A DNA stretch of 64,000 nt, taken from an uncultured Bifidobacteriaceae bacterium (GTDB lineage Bacteria > Bacteroidota > Bacteroidia > UKL13-3). Positions 3,801-36,840 of the stretch are shown here, piece after piece. Within the stretch, counting starts at the first letter, position 1; each line of letters begins with the position of its first letter. Location: contig CAYMRD010000010.1 in assembly GCA_964392775.1 (NCBI GenBank), positions 10,834 through 74,833 on the forward strand, read 5' to 3'. Under the pieces are notes generated by a model. It saw only the letters and a list, made by a program, of their open reading frames with translations, was not told where the DNA came from and did not search any database. A program made the position numbers and the translations under genes.

Positions 3801-6800
3801 AACGCAAATACATCCCGGATCCGGCATAACGACCATCTATAAGAACATTGTCGGCACCATCAAAGTGAATAAGGCCGCTTATACCTGTGGCAGTTCCTGC
3901 TATTAGTCTTTCGGAAGCAGCATCCGGCACAATTGATACATTATAGTCACCCACCTGATTAAACTGTTTGAGGGTAATGGCACCTGTTTCTGTTGTCAGG
4001 TCGCCTGTAATTTTTAGTATAACGTTTCCGGTAAGGCCTGATTTATTGATGCTGTCAAAGGCTCCGTACTCATTTGTCAGAGAGTTGCATGCACATAAAT
4101 CGCATACCTCAATAACGCCCGACAAAGCTGGCAGTACAACATAGCTGAAAGGTGTTGGCTCTGTTGTTATGAAGTATACATCAGAAGCTTCCACACCAAA
4201 AGGACCTGAGCCTACATTCGATAAAGGAGTTGCCATATCTTGTGCAACAATATAATAAGAGATAGTATCTCCAACGGCTATCACTCCGCCATCAACATTA
4301 GACGCATCAATTGTAAAGTTCCAGTCTCCACTCAATCCTGTACCCGAAACTTTAGTCCCGTTTGATGGGAAATAGGCTATGGCCGAATTCTTTTTGTAAT
4401 AAATTTTTGGCGTAAAAGCTACTGTATCAACACCGGAAGGATCCGAAATAGAAGCGGTTACCGTTAAAACTCCGGTCACCGGATTATTCACAACAGGAGT
4501 AACATTAACTGTTGGAGGAATTAAATCATCCTCAATTGTAAAGTTTCCTTCATAAGCTCCGATATCAGGCGTTGCCGGGCGTGTTGTATTCAGATAATCA
4601 GTTGTGTAACCGGCTATTGGCATACCACCCGTTTCCAAAACAGTAGGCGAAACAGAATCAGGATATAAAAAGAACGGATCTGTAGGGTCGGTAGAGATGA
4701 ACAATACATCTTCTGTTACCGACTGACTTTCTCTTGGATACATCCGGGCTTTAAATTGAGTAAGCGTTGAATCCCTGTTTGTTCCGTCAAAATAAATCAG
4801 ATGCGTTGAGCTTGGAGTGCTTCCTGCCCACAAAAGGTTATTATTGGATTGTGCATCATGGGTAACCAATGACGGAGTTTTGCGGTGAAAGGCACTTGCT
4901 ACACCTGTTCCACTCGGAGTAATATTATTGATAACAATATTATTTGCAAGGGTTAACACTTGCGAAGCATCGCAATAAATACCGGCCGAGTTTAGATTGG
5001 CCACCGTTGTTCCTGATAACGATACCGTATTATAGTAAACATTTGCCGTATAAAAGGTAGATATTACAGAAGCTACTCCTCCTATTGCAATTCCCATAAC
5101 AGCAGGGTTTGCTGTTAATACAGCCGCAGTTGGTGCAAAAATATCGCTAACTATATTGTTGTAAATATTGAGTGGCGCATAATTGTGTATGGTAAATGAG
5201 CCAACAGATGCCGGTTGATTTGTTAAAATACCGGCTGCGTATCCGCCAGTTGTACCGGCATGTGTAATTCCCGATACTTTATTACGATAGATATTTATAT
5301 TCTGTCCATACGTAACCGCAATACCTAACATATTTGCAAAAGTGACAGAAGTAGGCTTGCCACACAGGCGTGTTACAGTATTGTCATACACATTAATTTC
5401 CAATGGATTAGGAGTACCTGTCGATTCTACATATATGCCCGAAATACCCGATGCAAGTGTCGTAAAGCTATCAATTGAATTGTTATAAATATTAATAATG
5501 CGATTGACTGAGGTTGATGCCACGATAATTCCATAACTTGGAGAGGACTGATTACCGCCATGAGAGAGGGTGTCAATAGTATTATTGTAAATATTAAGGT
5601 TATACGCATATCCTGCTGTAATCGCAGCAAAAGTACCGGTTGCCAGGTTTCCGCTGCTAACATTATGAATATAGTTATGGTGAATATTACGGGTTTGCGT
5701 TTCGGATGTTATCCTCACCGGATTACTGATTGTCACTGCACTAAACAACGCAAACAGTCCTGTTCCTCCATTTAAACGTGTTACATTGTAAATTGAATCG
5801 TAACCGATATCCTCGGTTGCGGCAGCACCTGCAATGCGGAAAATAACCGGAGTACCTCCTGCGCTATGCTGAAACGTAAAGTCTCTGGCCACATTTCCAA
5901 CAAAGCTAAGGGATGACGCTAAAGAGGCAGCTCCCCCGTTATTGAAGTCAATTCCAATAAAGGTTCCATTCGAAACACCGGTACCAAGTGTCGCCCATTT
6001 AACAGAGTTATAATTCAACACCGCATTTCCATGCGTATATTGAGTAGCAATATTTGTAAAAGAGATACTGGCCCCCTGTGCTGCCGTCAGATTAACGCTG
6101 TTATAGGATATCTCAGCGTTTGTAGGGTTAGCAATCCCGGTACTGTTGTACGAGTTGAGAATCCCTCCCATACCTGCAACACTTGCTGCAACTGCACCTC
6201 CTGCATAATTATCAATCTCATTAAAGCGTATTTTCACATTATGCTGATTCAGCACCTGAATACCGAACCCGGCTGCTGCTCCTGCAAAGTTTGTGACTGT
6301 GTTAGGCTGCAATGAGTCGCCAATCACATTTCCATTATCAAACAATGATACATCAGGTATTGTTTGGCTGGAATTGCTAAAACCTCTCATGTAAATACCT
6401 GTATTCAGGTCTGTCAGTGTATTTGACACAAAACGGTTGTTGTTATTTGCATCCTCAGCAGTAGCGAGTGGCAATAGTGCACTGTTATCATTAATGGTAT
6501 ACGCATCTGCGTAAATTCCTTTTGAGGCGGTATTGGTTCTTCTTAACGTTACCGTACAATTTTGAATGGTATTGTTTGAACAACCATCAAACGGAGCCTC
6601 GGCATTTAACTTCAACAATCCATACCCCCATTCCATTTGTGCTGTAGCATTATTCACGGTACTGGTATCTTCCAGGTCAATCCCGTCAATGGTCACATAA
6701 TCCGTTCCTGATAATGTAAAGATTCCATCAAATGCTCCACTTCCAAAAGAAGATTTTAGCACAGGATTGGGTCCCGGGCCTCCTGTCTTTACAAAAGAAA

Positions 6801-15039: not shown

Positions 15040-15150
15040 TGACTCCGAATATTGTCCCCCGCTGCCCCCAACCCTAATGGGTGTTCCGCGCACAAGTATT
15101 TTAGAAAATGAGCGGTTGGCCCCCCTTCGAAGTTGAATCTTCCCGGCAGA
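15040..15150. repeat. Degraded copy of the MITE-like element whose full copy is at 29275-29432
   Basis: ~75 nt (15056-15124) is ~85% identical to 29316-29386, sharing the core gggtgttccgcgcacaagt.ttttagaaa.tg.gcggttgg. Flanking remnants of the terminal-repeat arms are present (ccgaatattgtc ; gttgaatcttcccgg). It lies between convergent genes. Confidence 0.55.
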
Positions 15151-29274: not shown

Positions 29275-29432
29275 ACTGACTATCGGGATATTGTCAATTA
29301 AACTTCTTCCATCCTCCGCAGCCCCTAACCCTAAAGGGTGTTCCGCGCACAAGTCTTTTAGAAAGTGTGCGGTTGGTCCCCGCTAGGGGCAGGCGTGCGC
29401 GAGGGCAAGTTGACAATATCCCGATAGTCAGT
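29275..29432. mobile_element. 158-bp MITE-like non-coding element with perfect 23-bp terminal inverted repeats and an 8-bp target-site duplication
   Basis: TIRs actgactatcgggatattgtcaa (29275-29298) and ttgacaatatcccgatagtcagt (29410-29432). Flanked on both sides by aaacaaaa (29267-29274 and 29433-29440). The internal core is homologous to 15056-15124. No ORF. Confidence 0.6.
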
Positions 29433-29487: not shown

Positions 29488-30960
29488 TTATCGTTTGCTA
29501 TAGTTTGGTGCTTCTTTGGTAATGGTCACATCGTGTGCGTGACTTTCTTTTGAACCCGCAGGAGTGATTTTGATAAACTTCGCTTTTTGCAGCGACTTGA
29601 TATCTTTTGCTCCTACATATCCCATACCTGCACGCAATCCGCCTACAAACTGGTAAATCACTTCTTTTAATTCGCCTTTAAACGGTACAATGCCCACAAT
29701 ACCTTCCGGTACAAGCTTTGCAATTTCATCTTCGGCATCCTGAAAATAACGGTCTTTTGAGCCTTCTTTCATCGCCTCAATCGAACCCATTCCTCGGTAT
29801 GATTTGAACTTACGTCCTTCGTATAAAATAGTTTCTCCCGGTGACTCTTCAGTTCCGGCAAACAAACTTCCGCTCATCACAGTACTTGCTCCGGCAGCTA
29901 ATGCTTTCACCACATCTCCACTGTAACGAATACCACCATCGGCAATAACCGGAATACCTGTTCCTTTTAAGGCTTTAGCGGCTTCGTAAATGGCTGTTAA
30001 CTGTGGAACACCAATACCTGCGATAATACGGGTGGTACAAATTGAACCGGGACCAACGCCTACTTTTACGGCATCCACACCGGCAGCAGCAAGGGCTTTT
30101 GCACCTTCACCTGTTGCAACGTTTCCGGCAATGATATCCAGAGTTGGGAACAATTTACGAAGGCGTTTGATTTCCTTCAATACAAAAGCCGAATGTCCGT
30201 GAGCCGTATCAATTGTAATTACATCCACTCCCGCTTTCACCAATGCTGCAATACGATCCTGCGTTTCGGGTGTAACCCCAACAGCCGCACCTACCAATAA
30301 ACGTCCGTGTTTATCTTTACAGGCATTCGGGTTATCGCGCAGCTTTAAAATATCTTTATAGGTAATCAAACCAATCAGTTTACCTTGTTTGTTTACAACA
30401 GGCAACTTCTCGATTTTGTATTTCTGTAAAATTGATTCTGCTTTTTTAAGGTCGGTACCTTCGGGAGCTGTAATGAGATTTGTTTTCGTCATTACCTCGC
30501 TCACCTTTTTGCTCATTACCTTTTCAAAGCGCAAATCGCGGTTGGTAAGGATTCCTACCAATTTATTTTTATCATCAACAATCGGAATACCACCGATTTT
30601 ATTGTCGCTCATCAGTTTCAACGCTTCCTTTAAGGTAGCATTCACCAATAACGTAACCGGATCGAGAATCATTCCACTTTCACTGCGTTTTACCTTACGC
30701 ACTTCTTCAGCCTGACGCTCGATGCTCATGTTTTTGTGCAACATGCCCACTCCCCCTTGTTGCGCCATGGCAATAGCCAAACGCGACTCGGTAACCGTAT
30801 CCATCGCTGCTGAAAGCATCGGGATATTGATTTTTAGATTACGGGTAAGTTGGGTGGCGGTGCTTACTTCTCGAGGAAGTACTTCTGAAAAAGCCGGGAG
30901 AAGCAATACATCATCAAACGTGAGGCCTTCTCCAAAGAATTTATTTTTATCGTTTATCAT
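29488..30960 (-). CDS. guaB: Inosine-5'-monophosphate dehydrogenase
   Basis: IMPDH catalytic loop [11 protein letters not shown], tandem CBS domains, GGIPIVDD and the ...[19 protein letters not shown]... motifs. Confidence 0.95.
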
Positions 30961-31085
30961 GGCAAATAATCGTTTCTATTATTTGCCGTGCGAATCTATG
31001 CTAAATGAATGAATTTAAAACAATAAACTTGCTTAACTGATAAATATCCTAGAAAGCATCTGCTGCATCTACGTTTGATGTCAAT

Positions 31086-31113
31086 AAAAAAAGTCCAGTC
31101 TTTCGACCGGACT
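31086..31113 (-). terminator. Terminator-like hairpin downstream of the Fic gene
   Basis: aaaaaaagtccagtctttcgaccggact: 8/9-bp stem with an A run on + (T run on -), 50 bp 3' of repeat B1. Confidence 0.5.
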
Positions 31114-31163
31114 TGCGAACGAAAAATGGGTAGTATCTCACTACGTGTGTAAGCAGAAAAACG

Positions 31164-31232
31164 AATAACAGTTTACAGTTTGTTGTGATGGCATTCCTCA
31201 GAATTCTACTCAATAGATTATGAACAGGCTCT
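31164..31232. repeat. Repeat B copy 1 (69 bp; identical to 35505-35573)
   Basis: aataacagtttacagtttgttgtgatggcattcctcagaattctactcaatagattatgaacaggctct is present twice in direct orientation. A looser match extends ~15 nt further 5' (ttgcgaacgaaaaa / ttgcgagcgaaaaa), with a 30-nt indel in copy 1. Confidence 0.9.
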
Positions 31233-32786
31233 TAGGGCAGTTCAGCCCCTCCTTTACCGGTCATCCGATCGTTTACAAGATTCCCTATAAACTTAGCAAA
31301 TGGCTCAAAGTTTTGCTCCACACTTGCACTTTCAAGAGCCTGCATATATTCATCACGTTTTTCGACAGGAATAACAGTCCAAGGATACCCTCCGGAAGCT
31401 AACATCACATTCATCAAAAAGCGTCCCATGCGCCCATTGCCATCCATGTAAGGGTGAATAAATACAAAAATGAAATGCCCAAGGACTACCCTTACTGAGG
31501 CTTCCTGTTCTTCTTCCAACAATTCAAAAAGTATTGGCATAGCGTCTCGCATACCTTCTACATTTAATGGCACATGCTTGGAATTACTTATGTAAACCTG
31601 ATGACTCCGATATCCAGCTAAATCAGACGGCTTTAACAACCCTACTGCTACACTTGGATCAAACAGTTGCCTATACCATCTTGGGTGATCATTCCATACC
31701 CGTTTCCCGGAATTTTCACCTGTAAGAATTGCCTTTATGGAATCTTTAACTACTTGGAACGTTTGCCAATAACCTCTGGCAGCCATTGCGTCTCTTTGTT
31801 TCCTGTCTTCCGCATTTTCTTTCGCGTTCCATTTACCGGAACTTACTTTCGCGATTAATTCAGGTGTTACTTTGTAACGTTCGATGGATAGTGAGTGATA
31901 AGCGTCAAGTCAGATAGATATCATCAATATCTTTCAAAAAAGCGTCATAATCTTTAGGAAGCCCGGGAGCCTTCGGAAAATTAGCAATTACTTTCTCACG
32001 CATCTCCATCCACATCAGACGAATGCGATTTGCATAAGGGGAACGTTCGCGGGAGGATAGCTTAATATTCAACCTAAACTCAAACGGATCTTCTTCACGT
32101 ATATCATAATCCGCTTGTTTGAATGTTTCTATGATTTGATCAGCAATCCTTTCTTGATGAATATTCCGAAAAGCTCCGGCCAGTCGACCAGCCAATGTAG
32201 TGTGTCCATTTTCCAATAACGCAGGCAACAATTCCGAAGCATCCCTAATTAAGGCAAGTGCTGTGCGGGCATCTATTGCATTATGAGTATAAACCGCTCC
32301 TGTACTATAAATAAGTGCAGATTGAAGATTATATATGCGAATGCCTTTATACACCTCCATTTGTTCAACGGGAGAAATATCTGTCTTTAAATTAAACAGT
32401 GATGTATTGTGTGGTAACGGTGTCGGTTTGTTATTTCCTTGCGAAGATCGCACAAGTAACTGATGTGGTACTGCCCAGTTGCCTGCATGAAGGAGCAAAG
32501 ATTGATCAGCGGATAAACACCAGTTATCTCCATATTTACGCTCCAAAAACTGTGCAACAAATTCCCAATATGAGCTATACCAAGCGGTGGTTTCCCCATC
32601 TCTTTCGTCAGGATTTGTAGCAATATACCACCCCTTAGTCACTTGACGCAGAAAGCCCTTTTTTACGAGTAACTGCCTGTGTTTTGCATTCGGTATATCA
32701 TTCGTATGAATGCCCACCCCCCCCTCATCCTGTACATTTTTCAGAAAGGTAAGGGCTTCTGCAAATCGTTCATTAGGTGTGGCCAT
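31232..32786 (-). pseudogene. Fic/Doc (Fido) family protein gene split by a +1 frameshift near 31905-31910 (ORFs 31905-32786 and 31232-31786 plus an in-frame open extension)
   Basis: The downstream part carries the Fido active-site motif HPYMDGNGRMGRF. The upstream 293-aa ORF is the long N-terminal region typical of ~500-aa Fic proteins. The lower reading frame is open from 31909 (LDAYHSLSIERYKVTPELIAKVSSGKWNAKENAEDRKQRDAM...), so a single-nucleotide indel at ctgACTTGAc would fuse them (~517 aa). Confidence 0.7.
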
Positions 32787-32831
32787 AGTCTTATAATTTT
32801 TATAAATAAACCTATCTATCCTTTGCTATTC

Positions 32832-32947
32832 TTAGTAAACACATACGTAGAACTACTAGTAAACACAAACGTACAACTATTAGTAAACATAAGCGTGTTA
32901 TTTTTAGTAAAACTAAACGTGTTACAATTAGTAAACGTATCAATATT
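32832..32947. promoter_or_regulatory. Five tandem 24-bp iteron-like direct repeats (TAGTAAAC...ACGT...) immediately upstream of the Fic start
   Basis: TAGTAAAC recurs at 32833, 32857, 32881, 32905 (TAGTAAAA) and 32929 with exact 24-bp phasing: ttagtaaacacatacgtagaactac / tagtaaacacaaacgtacaactat / tagtaaacataagcgtgttattt / ttagtaaaactaaacgtgttacaa / ttagtaaacgtatcaatat. Confidence 0.7.
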
Positions 32948-33181
32948 AAGCATAATATATTAAGCAACAGCAATTTAAATCAAATTACAACGATTCACCC
33001 CAGAGGATGAAACCTGTTAATTAGCTCCCGCTGCTCATCTATCGAGGTCTGGCGATACCGCGCAGTTGAGGATATCTACTTATGTCCGGCCATAAGACGA
33101 TAAGTTCTTGGTTCTACACAGGAACCAAATATTAGTACTATTAATGACAAAATTCTAATGCTATTCATTACATAAGAATCA

Positions 33182-33361
33182 AAAGTGATGAATGGGACAC
33201 GTAGAAATTATAAAATCAATCAGAACAACCTCTCATACATTTAAAACAAAAAAGATAAGGTTCATTACGCCCTCTCATTTGTCTTTCTTCAACAACAAAC
33301 CTGCTGAAAACAAATGAAATATAAAAACAGAATTCGAATAAGTGATAAATGGTACACTGCC
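33182..33361. repeat. Repeat A copy 1 (180 bp)
   Basis: 100% identical to 35281-35460 by eye. Sharp boundaries; the flanks differ between copies. Internal sub-terminal direct repeats AAGTGATGAATGGGACAC ... AAGTGATAAATGGTACAC. Confidence 0.9.
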
Positions 33362-33520
33362 TATTTTATTGAATTAGAAGTAAAATATGTAGTAAAATAC
33401 ATTTAGTAAAATTTAAACGACAAAGAGAATAATTATGGCTAAATATGTATTTAATTGCATTTATTGAAGAATAAATATATCTTTGCTAGTAGAAATAACT
33501 CATATAATGTATTTAAATAC

Positions 33521-33730
33521 ATGAAAAGTCTAGAATTAGCAGAAATAGTAAAAAGGAGAAGAGAAGAATTAGGAATAACTCAAAAAGATTTAGCAGAAAT
33601 GAGCGGAATTCATTTGCGAAGTATTAGTACAATAGAAAGTGGAGATGCAAACCCAACATTAGAGATTATAAGCCAAATAGCAGATATACTGGGATTAGAA
33701 ATACTATTAAAAGTTAAAGGAATAGAATAA
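33521..33730 (+). CDS. hipB: XRE-family HTH transcriptional regulator (HipB-like antitoxin/repressor component)
   Basis: MKSLELAEIVKRRREELGITQKDLAEMSGIHLRSISTIESGDANPTLEIISQIADILGLEI is a canonical Cro/C1 HTH. It ends 1 nt before the next gene. Confidence 0.8.
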   Translation: MKSLELAEIVKRRREELGITQKDLAEMSGIHLRSISTIESGDANPTLEIISQIADILGLEILLKVKGIE

Positions 33731-33731
33731 T

Positions 33732-34055
33732 ATGAAGCGAATGGCTAATGTATATATCAACAAAGAACTAGCAGGGATCTTGACTCACGAAAATGAATAT
33801 ACATTTCGTTATCAAGATTTATATTATAGTGATTCTAATAAACCAGCGATTAGCTTAACTCTACCGAAATCTAAGCAGGAATATACATCACCAATTCTTT
33901 TTCCATTTTTCTTTAACATGCTCGCGGAAGGAGTAAATCGACAATTGCAAAGTAGAAGATACAGAATTGATGAAACAGATTACTTCGGCTTATTATTGGC
34001 AACAGCTCAATATGATACAATTGGGGCAATCACATTAGAGGAGATTAAAGAATGA
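33732..34055 (+). CDS. hipS: HipS-like protein (stand-alone HipA N-terminal subdomain, 107 aa)
   Basis: MANVYINKELAGILTHENEYTFRYQD... matches the HipA_N / 'couple_hipA' N-subdomain 1. Overlaps the downstream kinase gene by 4 nt (ATGA). Confidence 0.7.
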   Translation: MKRMANVYINKELAGILTHENEYTFRYQDLYYSDSNKPAISLTLPKSKQEYTSPILFPFFFNMLAEGVNRQLQSRRYRIDETDYFGLLLATAQYDTIGAITLEEIKE

Positions 34056-35074
34056 GCACATTAGAAATAAATGTTTGTCCTGGAACGTTAAAAGAAGGTT
34101 TCAATACATATAGTCCAGCTTGTAAAAAGAGGGTCTTTAATGGTCGAGCTGTAAGCCATATTTTACCATTCCAAGCTCCTGACAAGGAAGGTGCGGATCA
34201 GGCTAAGTATCTTGAGAATAGAAAGAGGTTATCTATTTCAGGTGTTCAGGAAAAAATAACCTTATTTCTGGAAAAGAATAAATTTCGGTTCCCAGATGAA
34301 AATGAAGGAGGGCAATATATACTAAAGCCAATCCCAAGAGACTTATTACATGTAAGTCAAGTTCCTGCTAATGAGCATCTGACTATGCAAATTGCTGAGC
34401 AAGTTTTTGATATTCTAACTGCTCCAAATGCTATGATTTTTTTCAATGACTACTTACCAGCATACATTACCAAACGCTTTGATATAAAAGAGGATGGCAC
34501 AAGAAGAAGAAAAGAGGATTTTGCCTCTCTAGCACAAAAAACAGAAGAAAATGCAGGAAAAAATTTTAAGTATGACTATAGCTATCTTGGGGTTGCCGAA
34601 TTGATTAAGAAATATGTCCCTGCATATATCCCACAACTAGAACGTTTTTATACTCTAATTCTATTTAACTATCTTTTTAGTAATGGTGATGCTCACCTAA
34701 AGAACTTTTCACTACTTGAAACAGAGTCTAATGATTTTTTGCTGGCCCCAGCCTACGATTTAGTTTGTACCCGTATACATGTAGACGATGGGGATATGGG
34801 ATTAAAAGAGGGCCTTTACGATGAAGACATTGATCATCCAAGCTATGCAAAGTATGGATTTCATGCCTATGACGATTTCTATGACTTTGGTCTAAAGATT
34901 GGGCTTAAAGAAAGTCGAATACAAAAGATTCTTTTGTCATTTTCATTGAATCAAGAAATTGTTTTGTCCTTAATCGATAGATCATTCCTTAATCCTGAAT
35001 GCAAAGAGAATTATAGAAATCTGTATTTGGATAAACTTAGGCGATTCAAAATGTCAGAATCAGGAAGACTTTAA
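34052..35074 (+). CDS. hipT: HipT-like Ser/Thr kinase toxin (HipA C-terminal kinase domain lacking N-subdomain 1)
   Basis: Gly-rich loop LSISGVQEKITLFL (the SIS-G-V-Q pattern of HipT autophosphorylation serines). Catalytic motif GDAHLKNFSLL (HipA DxHxKNxS). PAYDLVCT activation-loop motif. Confidence 0.75.
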   Translation: MSTLEINVCPGTLKEGFNTYSPACKKRVFNGRAVSHILPFQAPDKEGADQAKYLENRKRLSISGVQEKITLFLEKNKFRFPDENEGGQYILKPIPRDLLHVSQVPANEHLTMQIAEQVFDILTAPNAMIFFNDYLPAYITKRFDIKEDGTRRRKEDFASLAQKTEENAGKNFKYDYSYLGVAELIKKYVPAYIPQLERFYTLILFNYLFSNGDAHLKNFSLLETESNDFLLAPAYDLVCTRIHVDDGDMGLKEGLYDEDIDHPSYAKYGFHAYDDFYDFGLKIGLKESRIQKILLSFSLNQEIVLSLIDRSFLNPECKENYRNLYLDKLRRFKMSESGRL

Positions 35075-35280
35075 TTCTATTAAATTGAAATAAGTCGTGC
35101 TCTATAACTGAGATCTCTATAAAACTTACATGTAAAAAGCATACGATTCTTTGGGTTGTTCATTTTCGCCAAGATATTTCATAATTTCACCAACACGCCT
35201 TGCACAGCCAATAGTGATAGGATATTTATTATCAAACTGTGTGTTATTCCAATTCATTTTAGTCAAACCAAGCACTTCTT

Positions 35281-35460
35281 TAAAGTGATGAATGGGACAC
35301 GTAGAAATTATAAAATCAATCAGAACAACCTCTCATACATTTAAAACAAAAAAGATAAGGTTCATTACGCCCTCTCATTTGTCTTTCTTCAACAACAAAC
35401 CTGCTGAAAACAAATGAAATATAAAAACAGAATTCGAATAAGTGATAAATGGTACACTGC
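35281..35460. repeat. Repeat A copy 2 (180 bp)
   Basis: Identical to copy 1. Lies 44 bp from repeat B copy 2. Confidence 0.9.
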
Positions 35461-35504
35461 CGGAAAAGTGTAGAAGGCTTTGGAAAAATTGCGAGCGAAA
35501 AATA

Positions 35505-35573
35505 AATAACAGTTTACAGTTTGTTGTGATGGCATTCCTCAGAATTCTACTCAATAGATTATGAACAGGCTCT
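35505..35573. repeat. Repeat B copy 2 (69 bp)
   Basis: Identical to 31164-31232. On the minus strand it is translated in-frame after the Rhs-core remnant (EPVHNLLSRILRNAITTNCKLLF). Confidence 0.9.
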
Positions 35574-35576
35574 AAG

Positions 35577-35689
35577 AACCGTCCTAATCTCGGATTATAA
35601 ATTCTGAACCCATAATCTTGTTGATTTCCAGCTCCGGAAACTTCATTATCATTCTCCTTGCCATTGAACCCGAAACGGTGCAACTCCAC
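35577..35689 (-). pseudogene. Orphan remnant of an RHS/YD-repeat core C-terminus (…GFNGKENDNEVSGAGNQQDYGFRIYNPRLGRFL), truncated exactly at the repeat-B junction
   Basis: The peptide matches the end of the RHS repeat-associated core domain (…YGYNGKE.D.E.GL..YGARYYDP.LGRF…). The expected continuation (…DP…NPYxYxxNNP…DPxGL + toxin domain) is absent; instead the frame runs into repeats B2 and A2. Confidence 0.6.
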
Positions 35690-35692
35690 CCA

Positions 35693-36160
35693 CTACCGTC
35701 TTTTTGTTCCTCGTTTAATTCCACTATTCTCAAAATTTTGAATCATTAAACTGTAACATGTTATAACATTTTTGCTTTCGATTGATTCAATTTCAGTGAG
35801 AATATGTTGTAACTTATTTAGACTTTCAAGCAGGCTTTCTTCATTCCCAATAATTGAATAAGTGGCATTCATAGTATCATTTGTCACAATTATTAAATAG
35901 TTATGCCCCCCATGAGATGAACCGTCACCAAAGGAATAAATTGTATTAGGAACAGATGTATAAAACACAGATTGGATTTTGTGAGCAAAATAGGTTTTAT
36001 TTCGAACCAGATCAGCATATCTATTATTGCTATCTTTAACTAAAGAATGCTCAATGATATTTCTAACATAGGCCGGTATATTCTGGGCCATTAATATGTT
36101 ATTGTTGAAATTTAAAAAAGTCACAATAACTAAGCAAAAATTAATTTTAATTATTTTCAT
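35693..36160 (-). CDS. Hypothetical small secreted protein (AT-rich, signal peptide MKIIKINFCLVIVTFLNF)
   Basis: 156 aa, ~30% GC, no recognisable domain. Sits 4 nt upstream of the Rhs-core remnant on the same strand. Confidence 0.4.
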   Translation of the reverse strand: MKIIKINFCLVIVTFLNFNNNILMAQNIPAYVRNIIEHSLVKDSNNRYADLVRNKTYFAHKIQSVFYTSVPNTIYSFGDGSSHGGHNYLIIVTNDTMNATYSIIGNEESLLESLNKLQHILTEIESIESKNVITCYSLMIQNFENSGIKRGTKRR

Positions 36161-36309
36161 TTCATTTGTGTTATGAAAGATCATTATTTTTTTTCAACAT
36201 CGTGAACTTTCGTTCCTTCTTTGTCAACACTTTGATAAAATTTCACTTCATTTTCTGTTGGCTTTTTCTCAGGATCACTTGGAGAGGGCACAACACTCCT
36301 GTTAGATTT

Positions 36310-36345
36310 CCCGTTGGCGCGGACGTGTCGTCCGCGCCAACGGGG
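36310..36345. repeat. 36-bp GC-rich perfect palindrome (16-bp arms, 4-nt loop)
   Basis: cccgttggcgcggacg-tgtc-cgtccgcgccaacggg, embedded in AT-rich DNA. Neither strand has a following T run, so it is not a canonical intrinsic terminator. Confidence 0.7.
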
Positions 36346-36446
36346 ATACAAGCATCTTCACAGAATTGTTCTTTCCTATTGAACTCGTCATGGATGATAA
36401 ATGAGACATTCCACTTAGGGCAATTAAATATAATTTCTTCTCGCTA

Positions 36447-36560
36447 AAAAAAGATAAGGTTCATTACGCCCTCTCATTTGCCTTTCTCCAACAACAAACC
36501 TGCTGAAAACAAATGAAATATAAAAACAGAATTCGAATAAGTGATAAATGGTACACTGCC
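36447..36560. repeat. Repeat A copy 3 (3'-partial, 114 bp, 2 mismatches)
   Basis: Matches the 3' 114 bp of repeat A (aaaaagataaggttcattacgccctctcatttgCctttctCc...ggtacactgcc) with the same sharp 3' boundary. Lies ~210 bp from the tRNA-fMet 3' end. Confidence 0.85.
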
Positions 36561-36722
36561 GACAGCTATGCTGTTGATACTTTTTACATAACAGGCATTG
36601 AAATTTTTGAGTTCCATTTTTCTAAAAACCTTTCTTAATGCATTGAGCATCACAAAGTTTACACCTCATATTTTCAGGTGATAATTAGGAACACGACTCT
36701 GGCAGAGTTGGCAGAGTTCTAA

Positions 36723-36765
36723 AAAAATAAGGGTTTCAACAATCTGTCAAAACCCTTTATTTTAC
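36723..36765 (-). terminator. Rho-independent terminator of tRNA-fMet
   Basis: The minus strand reads aagggttttgacagattgttgaaaccctt followed by atttttttag. Confidence 0.65.
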
Positions 36766-36768
36766 TTG

Positions 36769-36840
<72 letters not shown>

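Follow-up and report, generated by a model that had tools for sequence, protein, structure and literature searches.

A repeated 180-bp non-coding sequence at the joins of gene fragments in a decayed tRNA-Met insertion with a hipBST module: a possible relic of mobile DNA

Toxin-antitoxin genes are carried by the pdif modules of Acinetobacter plasmids, which have inverted pairs of 28-bp XerC/XerD sites. In IS607-type and integrase-type elements the expected end repeats are direct, not inverted, and come without target-site duplication. In Bacteroidales, rAID-1 arrays are recognized by a tyrosine recombinase of XerD-like type on the 5' side, followed by at least two co-oriented low-GC genes (10.1101/471110). 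Here we describe a 180-bp non-coding repeat (R) which shares some features with such systems and is found in a low-GC island of an uncultured freshwater Bacteroidia bacterium; all positions refer to the window, i.e. the whole stretch of 64,000 nucleotides that was analysed.

The island (5.7 kb, ~31052..36767) is placed between guaB and a tRNA-Met gene (36768..36840, minus strand), at whose 3' end it begins, and its GC content is 0.25-0.37, compared to 0.40-0.46 in the flanks. It is not present in the four closest relatives (L007-L010), where only ~60-470 bp lie between the homology upstream of guaB and tRNA-Met. The island is a patchwork of fragments with hipBST as the sole intact module. No recombinase or integrase was found in it or in the upstream ORFs checked, the downstream side being syntenic with the relatives, and no fragment of tRNA-Met occurs in R or elsewhere in the island. 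The region in its entirety is a decayed insertion at tRNA-Met, a point missed by the initial annotation of this DNA, as was the identity of an 80-bp repeat adjacent to R, which is an IS5-family remnant.

All three copies of R lie within 3.4 kb of the island, and the remaining 58 kb of the window contain none. R1 (33182..33361) and R2 (35282..35461) are full copies in direct orientation, with 100% identity over 180 bp, just as the initial annotation had claimed with the second copy one base off (35281-35460). The 3'-partial copy that it had also reported, R3 (36447..36560), corresponds to the right-hand 114 bp of R (positions 67-180) with two T-to-C mismatches (98% identity), and its identity with R2 extends one base further, to 36561. 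The sharp ends described earlier are equally real: each end marks an immediate divergence of the flanks, a sensitive self-BLAST across the island revealed no further homology near the copies, and R stands as a discrete unit in several unrelated contexts. Also in agreement with the earlier description, there are no terminal inverted repeats between the ends of R, which are direct repeats, and no target-site duplication, the flanks of the three copies having nothing in common. The copies vary in length, as do the two solo ends of IS5 in the same island, which measure 79 and 111 bp.

The sequences joined by R are mostly broken genes. To the left of R1 lies unknown sequence upstream of a disrupted Fic-family gene (31232..32786, minus strand; Pfam Fic) made up of a 293-aa and a 184-aa ORF; a related locus (L098) has a continuous homologous region, and the Fic gene is a pseudogene. 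The left end of R2 is the exact break point of a short pAgo (Piwi-domain) gene, homology to which ends at 35278-35281. What is left of it (35126..35281, minus strand) comprises the last ~50 codons, which tblastn aligns at 61-73% identity with the C-terminal ends of Piwi-domain proteins of 469 aa, whose genes come after SMEK-domain genes; the 49-aa ORF found here is a pAgo stub. The right end of R2 is likewise the exact break point of an IS5 transposase, whose homology starts at 35463. Further on are a fragment of an RHS repeat-associated core (35580..35689, minus strand; TIGR03696, E=2.6e-5, profile positions 16-48 of 76, under the curated cut-off) and a 163-aa ORFan with a signal-peptide-like N-terminus (35693..36184, minus strand), for which neither a family match nor a homologue other than itself was found, and which is a putative orphan immunity gene.

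Two right-end remnants of an IS5-family element, 96% identical to each other, are present on the plus strand: one (31153..31231) inserted at CTAAG, the stop codon of the Fic gene, and the other (35462..35572) at CTTAG in the RHS fragment. The latter consists of the last 33 transposase codons and the terminal inverted repeat, and matches the 3' end of an annotated IS5-family transposase (tblastx, E=3e-14), while the 80-bp repeat common to both matches 751 plasmid records under IS5 transposase genes. The inverted repeat GAGCCTGTTCATAATC is present twice, flanked by TAA and TTA (a TNA target), so the transposase C-terminus, the terminal inverted repeat and the target all place this repeat in the IS5 family.

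The 1920 bp between R1 and R2 consist of 78 bp of unknown sequence (33362..33439) containing TAGTAAAA repeats, the hipBST module and the pAgo 3' fragment. The earlier view of R as bracketing hipBST is therefore correct in that the module lies between R1 and R2, but incomplete, since the other two parts are enclosed as well. Only the module itself (33440-35076) is conserved with other hipBST loci. Its three genes (33521..35074, plus strand) are intact: hipB (33521-33730) encodes the HTH antitoxin, hipS (33732-34055) the HipA N-terminal domain and hipT (34052-35074) the HipA C-terminal kinase domain, with Pfam matches to HTH_3 (4e-16), Couple_hipA (1e-19) and HipA_C (2e-36), respectively. Homologous modules elsewhere occupy unrelated contexts and have no flanking repeats, which indicates that R does not belong to the hipBST unit.

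R itself contains an internal 18-bp direct repeat at positions 2-19 and 159-176, with 16/18 bases matching. This imperfect repeat had been noticed before, and it is non-random: any such motif pair was found in 4/2000 shuffles of R and a pair at both termini in 0/2000. The left motif AAGTGATGAATGGGACAC lies at 33183..33200 in R1 and 35283-35300 in R2, and the right motif AAGTGATAAATGGTACAC at 33340..33357 in R1, 35440-35457 in R2 and 36539-36556 in R3, all on the plus strand and with a left-to-right spacing of 157 bp. A third variant, GGATGATAAATGAGACAT (36392..36409, plus strand), exactly matches the 14-mer core TGATRAATGNNACA and is situated outside the R-homologous region, 147 bp to the left of the right motif of R3. 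Exact matches to TGATRAATGNNACA number six in the window, all in the island and all on the plus strand, where chance would give 1.24 per window even with one mismatch allowed. A possible fourth motif, AGGTGATAATTAGGAACAC (36676..36694, plus strand), is weak, with three substitutions and one insertion; chance alone would give ~7 equally good matches per window, which leaves just its position and orientation as suggestive.

R was absent from the viral contigs, plasmids, phages and 80 related loci searched, and also from GTDB representative genomes (the source genome not being among them) and JGI metagenomes, the last two each scanned with one exact 20-25-nt word. It matched nothing in any collection searched, in keeping with the novelty suggested for it at the outset. 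Several known classes were considered and are not supported. R does not show the features of a MITE (non-autonomous DDE element), given the lack of terminal inverted repeats and target-site duplication; the window has three copies, all within 3.4 kb of one island, and the flanks of R2 are two unrelated truncated genes and not a split target. Nor is there support for an HUH-mobilised, IS200/IS605-derived palindrome-associated element, as had been proposed, because there are no sub-terminal DNA hairpins at either end (single-strand DNA folds at both termini and on both strands reach -0.3 to -2.1 kcal/mol, weaker than shuffles); neither the island nor the upstream ORFs checked contained a TnpA/RAYT, with the downstream side syntenic. 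An integron attC site or CALIN was rejected for want of hairpin potential and an integrase, and a tRNA-type att site because R has no tRNA-Met 3' end and the island no integrase.

R is found only at joins between broken genes in a degraded island beside a tRNA gene, and is therefore most likely a leftover of mobile DNA. The reading we prefer, one that we hold tentatively and rate somewhat short of probable, is that a decayed mobile element has left R behind as passive, non-coding DNA, a relic that forms a seam between gene fragments. As no homologue of R was found in any collection searched, we infer its mobile-element origin from context only. On this view R would stem from an uncharacterised mobile element, either its end or its att region; the element may be the one with the zinc-ribbon gene start beside R3, and the directly repeated 14-18-bp motifs of R would be former protein-binding sites. 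The partial R3 (98%) and the IS5 remnants (96%) would record older events, and the identical R1 and R2 probably arose by one recent recombination: a single crossover, of the Campbell type or accretion type, between a resident R and a hypothetical donor circle with R, hipBST and the pAgo stub. A 2.1-kb segment between perfect 180-bp direct repeats can be deleted, or excised as a circle, by homologous recombination of the host. Looping out of the cassette, which the initial annotation suggested, thus follows from the repeats and is probably a matter of general homologous recombination; it would need no dedicated machinery encoded locally, and no recombinase was found in or near the island. In favour of the relic reading count the junctions in broken genes, the unequal length of the copies and their confinement to the island, the non-random motif pair with its third copy outside the homologous part of R3, the absence of repeats around other hipBST modules, and the independent Logan assemblies described below. 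Against it, R1 and R2 share both exact ends in different contexts, and these ends lie on the 18-bp motifs, a pattern more in line with a recognition site or defined unit than with an arbitrary relic.

It is conceivable, although unlikely, that R is a functional recombination or transposition unit, either a non-autonomous element or an att-type site. The 18-bp ends may be the binding sites of an enzyme with its gene elsewhere in the genome (a transposase, or a recombinase of the serine or tyrosine type), which may move or capture cassettes such as hipBST and delete adjacent DNA from both ends of R. Such end-mediated adjacent deletions would predict what is seen here, i.e. three right-hand and two left-hand contexts with several truncated genes, and both ends of R are sharp and on the motif. 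Direct end repeats without target-site duplication are the expected pattern for recombinase-type elements, simple arithmetic puts both motif spacings (157 and 147 bp) near whole numbers of helical turns, and the third motif is retained beside R3 despite the differing surrounding sequence. However, neither the island nor its syntenic flanks encode a recombinase, the three copies are confined to 3.4 kb and no copy appeared in the viral, plasmid, phage, GTDB and JGI collections or the 80 related loci; moreover, with unrelated genes on its two sides R2 does not qualify as a simple insertion. In its boldest form, R would be the recognition unit of an undescribed cassette-mobilising system of uncultured freshwater Bacteroidia, with a 160-180-bp site between two directly repeated 18-bp motifs and a recombinase encoded elsewhere, which captures, duplicates and excises defence and toxin-antitoxin cassettes by tRNA-Met. 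This combination we regard as quite improbable; it would be a functional analogue of integrons or dif modules with a different site architecture.

Another explanation, which we consider decidedly unlikely, is that R is the next ~180 bp of an IS1/IS1595-like element whose zinc-ribbon gene start is at 36561-36669, and hence an internal piece of an insertion sequence of a known kind, with R1 and R2 as duplicated scraps of it. The right flank of R3 is indeed the start of a zinc-ribbon ORF (36561..36669, minus strand; N-terminal, IS1/IS1595/IS256-type, with an in-frame stop), whose frame continues from segment S5 into R3 for 47 codons with a CxxC pair spanning the boundary. It matches transposase zinc domains in NCBIfam with E=4e-4 to 2e-3, every one of them below the curated cut-off, and over 28 aa it is 43% identical to an IS1 transposase from Empedobacter; this start is probably a 5' remnant of an insertion sequence, in an island rich in such remnants. 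On the other hand, the peptide encoded by R alone has no family match at E<=10 and R no protein-level match in six frames of the plasmid collection, and open frames this long were reached by 10-28% of shuffles. That the continuation of the ORF encoded by R is without a family match can be noted against the relic reading as well.

It is very unlikely that the tandem arrangement of R, hipBST and R is the assembler's resolution of a repeat loop, the true state being a single R with a 2.1-kb circle (R plus the hipBST segment), or the hipBST segment situated elsewhere between other copies of R. The source, a 110-kb NCBI contig, is apparently metagenome-assembled. In independent Logan assemblies from 4-5 samples the contig of segment S2 is present with 30 nt of R on both sides, and contigs from the same samples break exactly at R and at the IS5 remnant. 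Since these de Bruijn contigs stop 30 nt into R on all sides, the graph holds a loop on R, which reads of <=150 nt cannot span. Nevertheless, the loop can be placed only at R, so the linear path is its natural solution; the 2.1-kb circle would lack a replication gene, and, as R3 and the IS5 remnants demonstrate, this island does contain real repeats.

Finally, that R is a small RNA gene, as also suggested initially, or a regulatory leader or promoter repeated before cassettes is scarcely credible: read in tRNA orientation R is always 5' of minus-strand genes or gene fragments, but two of these three downstream genes are truncated fragments, Rfam gave no match to R at gathering thresholds or at E<=1 (only the tRNA and a sub-threshold chance miRNA match outside R), folding of both strands, a check proposed with that suggestion, was no better than shuffles (z-scores +0.65 and +0.21), promoter- and terminator-like matches across the island were no commoner than in shuffles (sigma-70-type sites only), and no Bacteroidota-type TAnnTTTG element was seen on reading R.

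The locus clearly exemplifies the survival of an intact toxin-antitoxin module next to a tRNA gene, among the remains of defence and toxin genes. Perfect direct repeats can destabilise such a module through loss or circle formation, and instability of the R1/R2 type has a bearing on strain variation as well as on MAG assembly. The annotation of the region is corrected accordingly, i.e. the adjacent repeat to an IS5 remnant, the 49-aa ORF to a pAgo stub and the Fic gene to a pseudogene. If the motif-bounded R were a recombinase site, it would represent a new kind of cassette-capture site in Bacteroidota.

Compared to known systems, the island resembles the rAID-1 arrays of Bacteroidales (10.1101/471110; PMC12247911) as a low-GC Bacteroidota cluster with toxin remnants, a putative orphan immunity gene and a repeated intergenic sequence. 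It cannot be classified as rAID-1, since the XerD-like recombinase is missing from the island and the flanks checked, its genes are not co-oriented short immunity genes and R does not stand between every gene. As in pdif modules, a toxin-antitoxin module is bounded by short repeated sites of recombination type, but R is 180 bp long, in direct copies and without dif-like sequence. IS26-type translocatable units and pseudo-compound transposons likewise have cargo between identical direct copies without target-site duplication, and the cargo with one copy can exit as a circle; IS26, however, is an 820-bp insertion sequence that encodes its own transposase, while R is 180 bp, non-coding and free of inverted repeats. 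The solo IS5 ends of the same island (31153-31231 and 35462-35572) also have one sharp shared terminus and a variably truncated other side, and R, like them, sits at broken genes in highly but imperfectly identical copies; they differ in having a transposase C-terminus, a terminal inverted repeat and TNA targets, whereas R lacks all three and gave no match to a known insertion sequence. In comparison with Campbell-type integration and CIME-like accretion, R repeats have no tRNA 3' end or recognisable att core, no helper integrase or ICE was seen and the circular donor is hypothetical. Nevertheless, this island without an integrase shows the features of CIME-like accretion in its older hybrid copy, R3, which shares one side only, and, as in Campbell-type integration, a segment lies between identical direct repeats in an island at a tRNA gene.

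The 180-bp repeat R is present in two full copies, R1 (33182-33361) and R2 (35282-35461), which are identical over their 180 bp and lie in direct orientation, and in one partial copy, R3 (36447-36560), which covers R positions 67-180 and differs from them by two T-to-C changes. The initial annotation had reported all three copies with the same identity, orientation and number of mismatches, but its coordinates for R2 were one base too low. Sequence flanking R1, R2 and R3 diverges immediately at each end, which bears out the sharp ends claimed for the copies, and a sensitive self-comparison of the island gave no weaker homology around them. Terminal inverted repeats and target-site duplications are absent, as had also been noted. 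The 18-bp direct repeat described at the ends of the unit lies inside it (R positions 2-19 and 159-176, 16 of 18 bases matching) and is not a product of chance, since among 2000 shuffles of R a comparable pair occurred anywhere in four and at both termini in none.

All three copies are situated in a low-GC stretch (0.25-0.37, versus 0.40-0.46 outside) bordered by guaB (29488-30960) and tRNA-Met (36768-36840), both on the minus strand. When genomes were scanned with Era, which is encoded nearby, the closest relatives proved to be uncultured Bacteroidia MAGs (Era 80-88% identical). In the comparison loci L007-L010 the gap between the guaB-upstream sequence and tRNA-Met is only about 60-470 bp, and their synteny with the window to the right of tRNA-Met is unbroken for at least 9 kb. 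Comparison of these loci thus indicates that positions ~31052-36767 represent a lineage-specific insertion of 5.7 kb on the 3' side of tRNA-Met. No gene for an integrase or transposase was found in the island or in the neighbouring ORFs checked upstream, the downstream side being syntenic core sequence, and no partial tRNA copy is present at the far end of the island. The terminator that now follows tRNA-Met (36729-36757) is similar to the one in L015, a more distant relative, and a hairpin at the far island end (31088-31117) looks like the terminator that L008 and L009, two close relatives, have behind this tRNA. These resemblances suggest that the tRNA-proximal flank may have been swapped by an integration event as foreign DNA arrived. 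In this lineage the tRNA-Met locus seems to be a hotspot of rearrangement. The 3' half of tRNA-Met with its terminator is present in three tandem copies in L007 (9575-9852), and in L015 a duplicated pseudo-tRNA surrounds a small GIY-YIG-like ORF, read by eye (4409-4960). A 70-bp GC-rich repeat unrelated to R is present in two intergenic regions (15055-15124 and 29312-29381, 89% identity), the latter copy directly downstream of guaB.

Read from the tRNA on the minus strand, the island consists of the start of a zinc-ribbon ORF, R3, the end of a remnant ORF, a 163-aa ORFan, an RHS-core fragment, an IS5 remnant, R2, the end of a prokaryotic Argonaute (pAgo) gene, hipBST, 78 bp, R1, about 400 bp, a Fic-family gene and a second IS5 remnant. 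The zinc-ribbon ORF start (36561-36669, minus strand; MRCKLCDAQCIKKGF, an in-frame stop, then KNGTQKFQCLLCKK, with a CxxC...CxxC pattern) matches three transposase N-terminal zinc-binding models (IS256_N_4Cys, IS1/IS1595 and IS1249) with E-values of 4e-4 to 2e-3, each below the curated cut-offs, and aligns over 28 residues with an IS1 transposase from Empedobacter (43% identity). This ORF start probably stems from the 5' end of another IS. A perfect GC-rich hairpin, unique in the window (36310-36344, 35 nt, 16-bp stem, dG -24.4 kcal/mol, z -7.5), interrupts the AT-rich remnant ORF end just upstream of the 163-aa gene, and the stop of this remnant overlaps the start of the ORFan in the sequence TAATG. 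The ORFan (35693-36184, minus strand) has a signal-peptide-like N-terminus and no homologues except itself. Together with the RHS-core fragment (35580-35689, minus strand; TIGR03696, E 2.6e-5, below the curated cut-off) it forms, by layout, a putative orphan toxin-immunity module. The pAgo fragment (35126-35281, minus strand), formerly listed as a 49-aa ORF, comprises the last ~50 codons of a gene and is 61-73% identical to 469-aa Piwi-domain proteins located after SMEK-domain genes on plasmids, which identifies it by homology as a truncated short prokaryotic Argonaute defence gene, convergent with hipT. The Fic-family gene (31232-32786, minus strand) is split into ORFs of 293 and 184 aa with a 118-bp gap, and since the homologous region in L098 is unbroken, the copy in the window is a pseudogene. 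Upstream of it, the ~400 bp that separate it from R1 hold five 24-bp tandem repeats (32832-32951; TAGTAAACA.AAACGT...), two further TAGTAAAA copies lie on the other side of R1 (33390 and 33404), and eight of the window's 11 TAGTAAAM sites, all on the plus strand, cluster around R1 and the Fic upstream region; the tandem repeats and the TAGTAAAA copies look like iterons or operators. Neither the scrap of flank upstream of R1, nor the 78 bp between R1 and hipBST, nor the stretch right of R3 matched plasmids in six-frame tblastn.

The hipBST module is intact and lies on the strand opposite to tRNA-Met. Homologous hipBST or hipST modules (73-91% nucleotide identity) are found in unrelated chromosomal contexts, with homology confined to 33440-35076 or part of it, and neither R nor any flanking repeat is present beside them. 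R therefore does not belong to a mobile hipBST unit, and this reading was rejected. A perfect 16-bp palindrome, ATGTATTTAAATACAT (33507-33522), overlaps the hipB start codon and is a likely HipB operator. On a JGI contig (L088, 428-2729) an IS21-family element with IstA and IstB is inserted into a hipT 91% identical in nucleotides to that of the window.

A second repeat of 80 bp (31156-31235 and 35497-35576, 96% identity) was traced to an IS. HMMER search with the minus-strand frame through it returned a common C-terminal peptide fused behind unrelated N-termini (transposases and a response regulator among them), and in 751 plasmid records this peptide maps antisense to genes annotated as IS5-family transposases, at their 3' end. 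In the sense direction (plus strand), 35463-35576 encodes EKCRRLWKNCERKINNSLQFVVMAFLRILLNRL followed by a stop, where an annotated Levilactobacillus IS5-family element has DKCRRLWKNCERQLNTSRQMVILAFLVLLLKRF and a stop at the same place (tblastx E=3e-14). The window has exactly two copies of the terminal inverted repeat GAGCCTGTTCATAATC, at 31216-31231 and 35557-35572. The lone "mismatch" beside it falls on the central base of a TNA target, which reads TAA (the Fic stop codon) in one case and TTA (in the RHS fragment) in the other. The transposase 3' end, the inverted repeat and the differing targets indicate that the 80-bp repeat reflects two independent insertions of one IS5-family IS, each truncated later from inside. 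What is left are two right-end remnants, 31153-31231 (79 bp, at CTAAG) and 35462-35572 (111 bp, at CTTAG), and no left end of this IS was found anywhere in the window.

IS5 homology ends exactly at the right end of R2 and pAgo homology ends within one codon of its left end, so R2 sits between two unrelated genes, both without their 5' parts; these junctions indicate that R2 did not simply insert into a formerly continuous target. R as an upstream continuation of the IS5 transposase was rejected, as codon-by-codon homology stops at 35463 and Pfam gave nothing, and so was R as a continuation of the pAgo gene, whose homology stops at the left end of R2. The reading we favour, with somewhat less than even confidence, is that R is non-coding DNA left over from a decayed mobile element and now forms a seam in an IS-riddled island. 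The IS5 remnants of the same island show the identical pattern, with one sharp end in common, truncations of differing extent and positions at broken genes. Judged by identity, the IS5 remnants (96%) and R3 (98%) would be older and R1/R2 (100%) recent. A single crossover between a resident R and a hypothetical donor circle carrying R, hipBST and the pAgo stub could have produced the present order R1-segment-R2. The 2.1-kb unit can be deleted or excised via homologous recombination between the 180-bp repeats; the loop-out proposed in the initial annotation would probably proceed in this way, and a recombination site served by an enzyme encoded elsewhere is a rival explanation.

According to that rival, which we regard as unlikely but worth weighing before the others, R itself is a recombination or transposition unit for an enzyme encoded elsewhere. 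One feature that stays distinctive is the 14-bp core of the end repeat, TGATRAATGNNACA, of which the window contains six exact copies, all inside the island and on the plus strand, while about 1.24 matches are expected with one mismatch already allowed. Four of the copies form the two ends of R1 and of R2, at a spacing of 157 bp, a fifth forms the right end of R3, and the last is found 147 bp left of this one in sequence otherwise unlike R. A weaker gapped copy just upstream of the zinc-ribbon ATG (36676-36694) is not significant alone. Present at both ends of the unit and retained where the intervening sequence differs, the motif looks like a putative protein-binding site and could be a former transposase or recombinase site. 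A Tn7/Mu-like end was rejected: every motif copy is on one strand, so the opposite end is absent. A recombination or transposition unit is supported by the fact that both ends of R fall on the motif and by the number of different R junctions; however, no recombinase was found in the island or the neighbouring ORFs checked, and copies of R are very few, clustered, and found nowhere else in the collections searched.

Somewhat less probable still is that R is an internal piece of an IS1-like element. At its right end R3 adjoins the zinc-ribbon ORF, the frame of which runs on for 47 open codons inside R3, and a CxxC pair spans the boundary. However, the R-encoded peptide of this frame matched no family and no plasmid sequence, and open frames of this kind are common by chance: minus-strand frames are open through R2 with the IS5 remnant and the stretch lying beside it, and through R3 with the stretch to its right, and the same frame lengths occur in 10-16% of shuffles, so that coding in R was rejected. 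In a HMMER search of 1.84 billion proteins the R-encoded part matched solely the window's own ORF, and no small R-spanning ORFs are on record in public assemblies. A relation of R to the stretch right of R3 as tandem units was also rejected. A loop ambiguity of the assembly at R seems improbable. In the Logan assemblies of the same samples the contigs break off 30 nt inside R on every side, which means that short reads cannot separate R-segment-R from a single R plus a circle.

R matched no plasmid or phage by blastn and no plasmid by six-frame tblastn; one exact 25-mer of it was absent from GTDB representative genomes, among which the source genome is not included, one exact 20-mer gave only two chance matches to unrelated eukaryote-like contigs in JGI metagenomes, two words from it were absent from IMG/VR, and neither the remainder of the window nor ~100 fetched loci gave a hit with nhmmer or blastn. 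A widespread repeat family is unlikely, although the exact words of 20-25 nt used for GTDB and JGI would miss diverged copies there. That R is an sRNA, as the initial annotation had considered, or a leader is highly improbable: there is no Rfam match even at E<=1, folding of either strand is no better than that of shuffles, and promoter- or terminator-like matches across the island are no commoner than in shuffles. Together with the absence of DNA hairpins at the R ends and the database negatives, this also argues against a HUH-mobilised, palindrome-associated element and against an attC-like site.

R lacks features that define MITEs, IS200/IS605 derivatives, attC sites, tRNA-type att sites and rAID-1 arrays (for the latter compared with the criteria in 10.1101/471110 and PMC12247911). 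We therefore assign it to no named family and list it as an unclassified short repeat specific to this lineage, in the broad category "relic or seam of mobile DNA". In its arrangement, cargo between identical direct repeats with no target-site duplication, it is like Campbell-type integration, CIME-type accretion and the IS26 translocatable unit.
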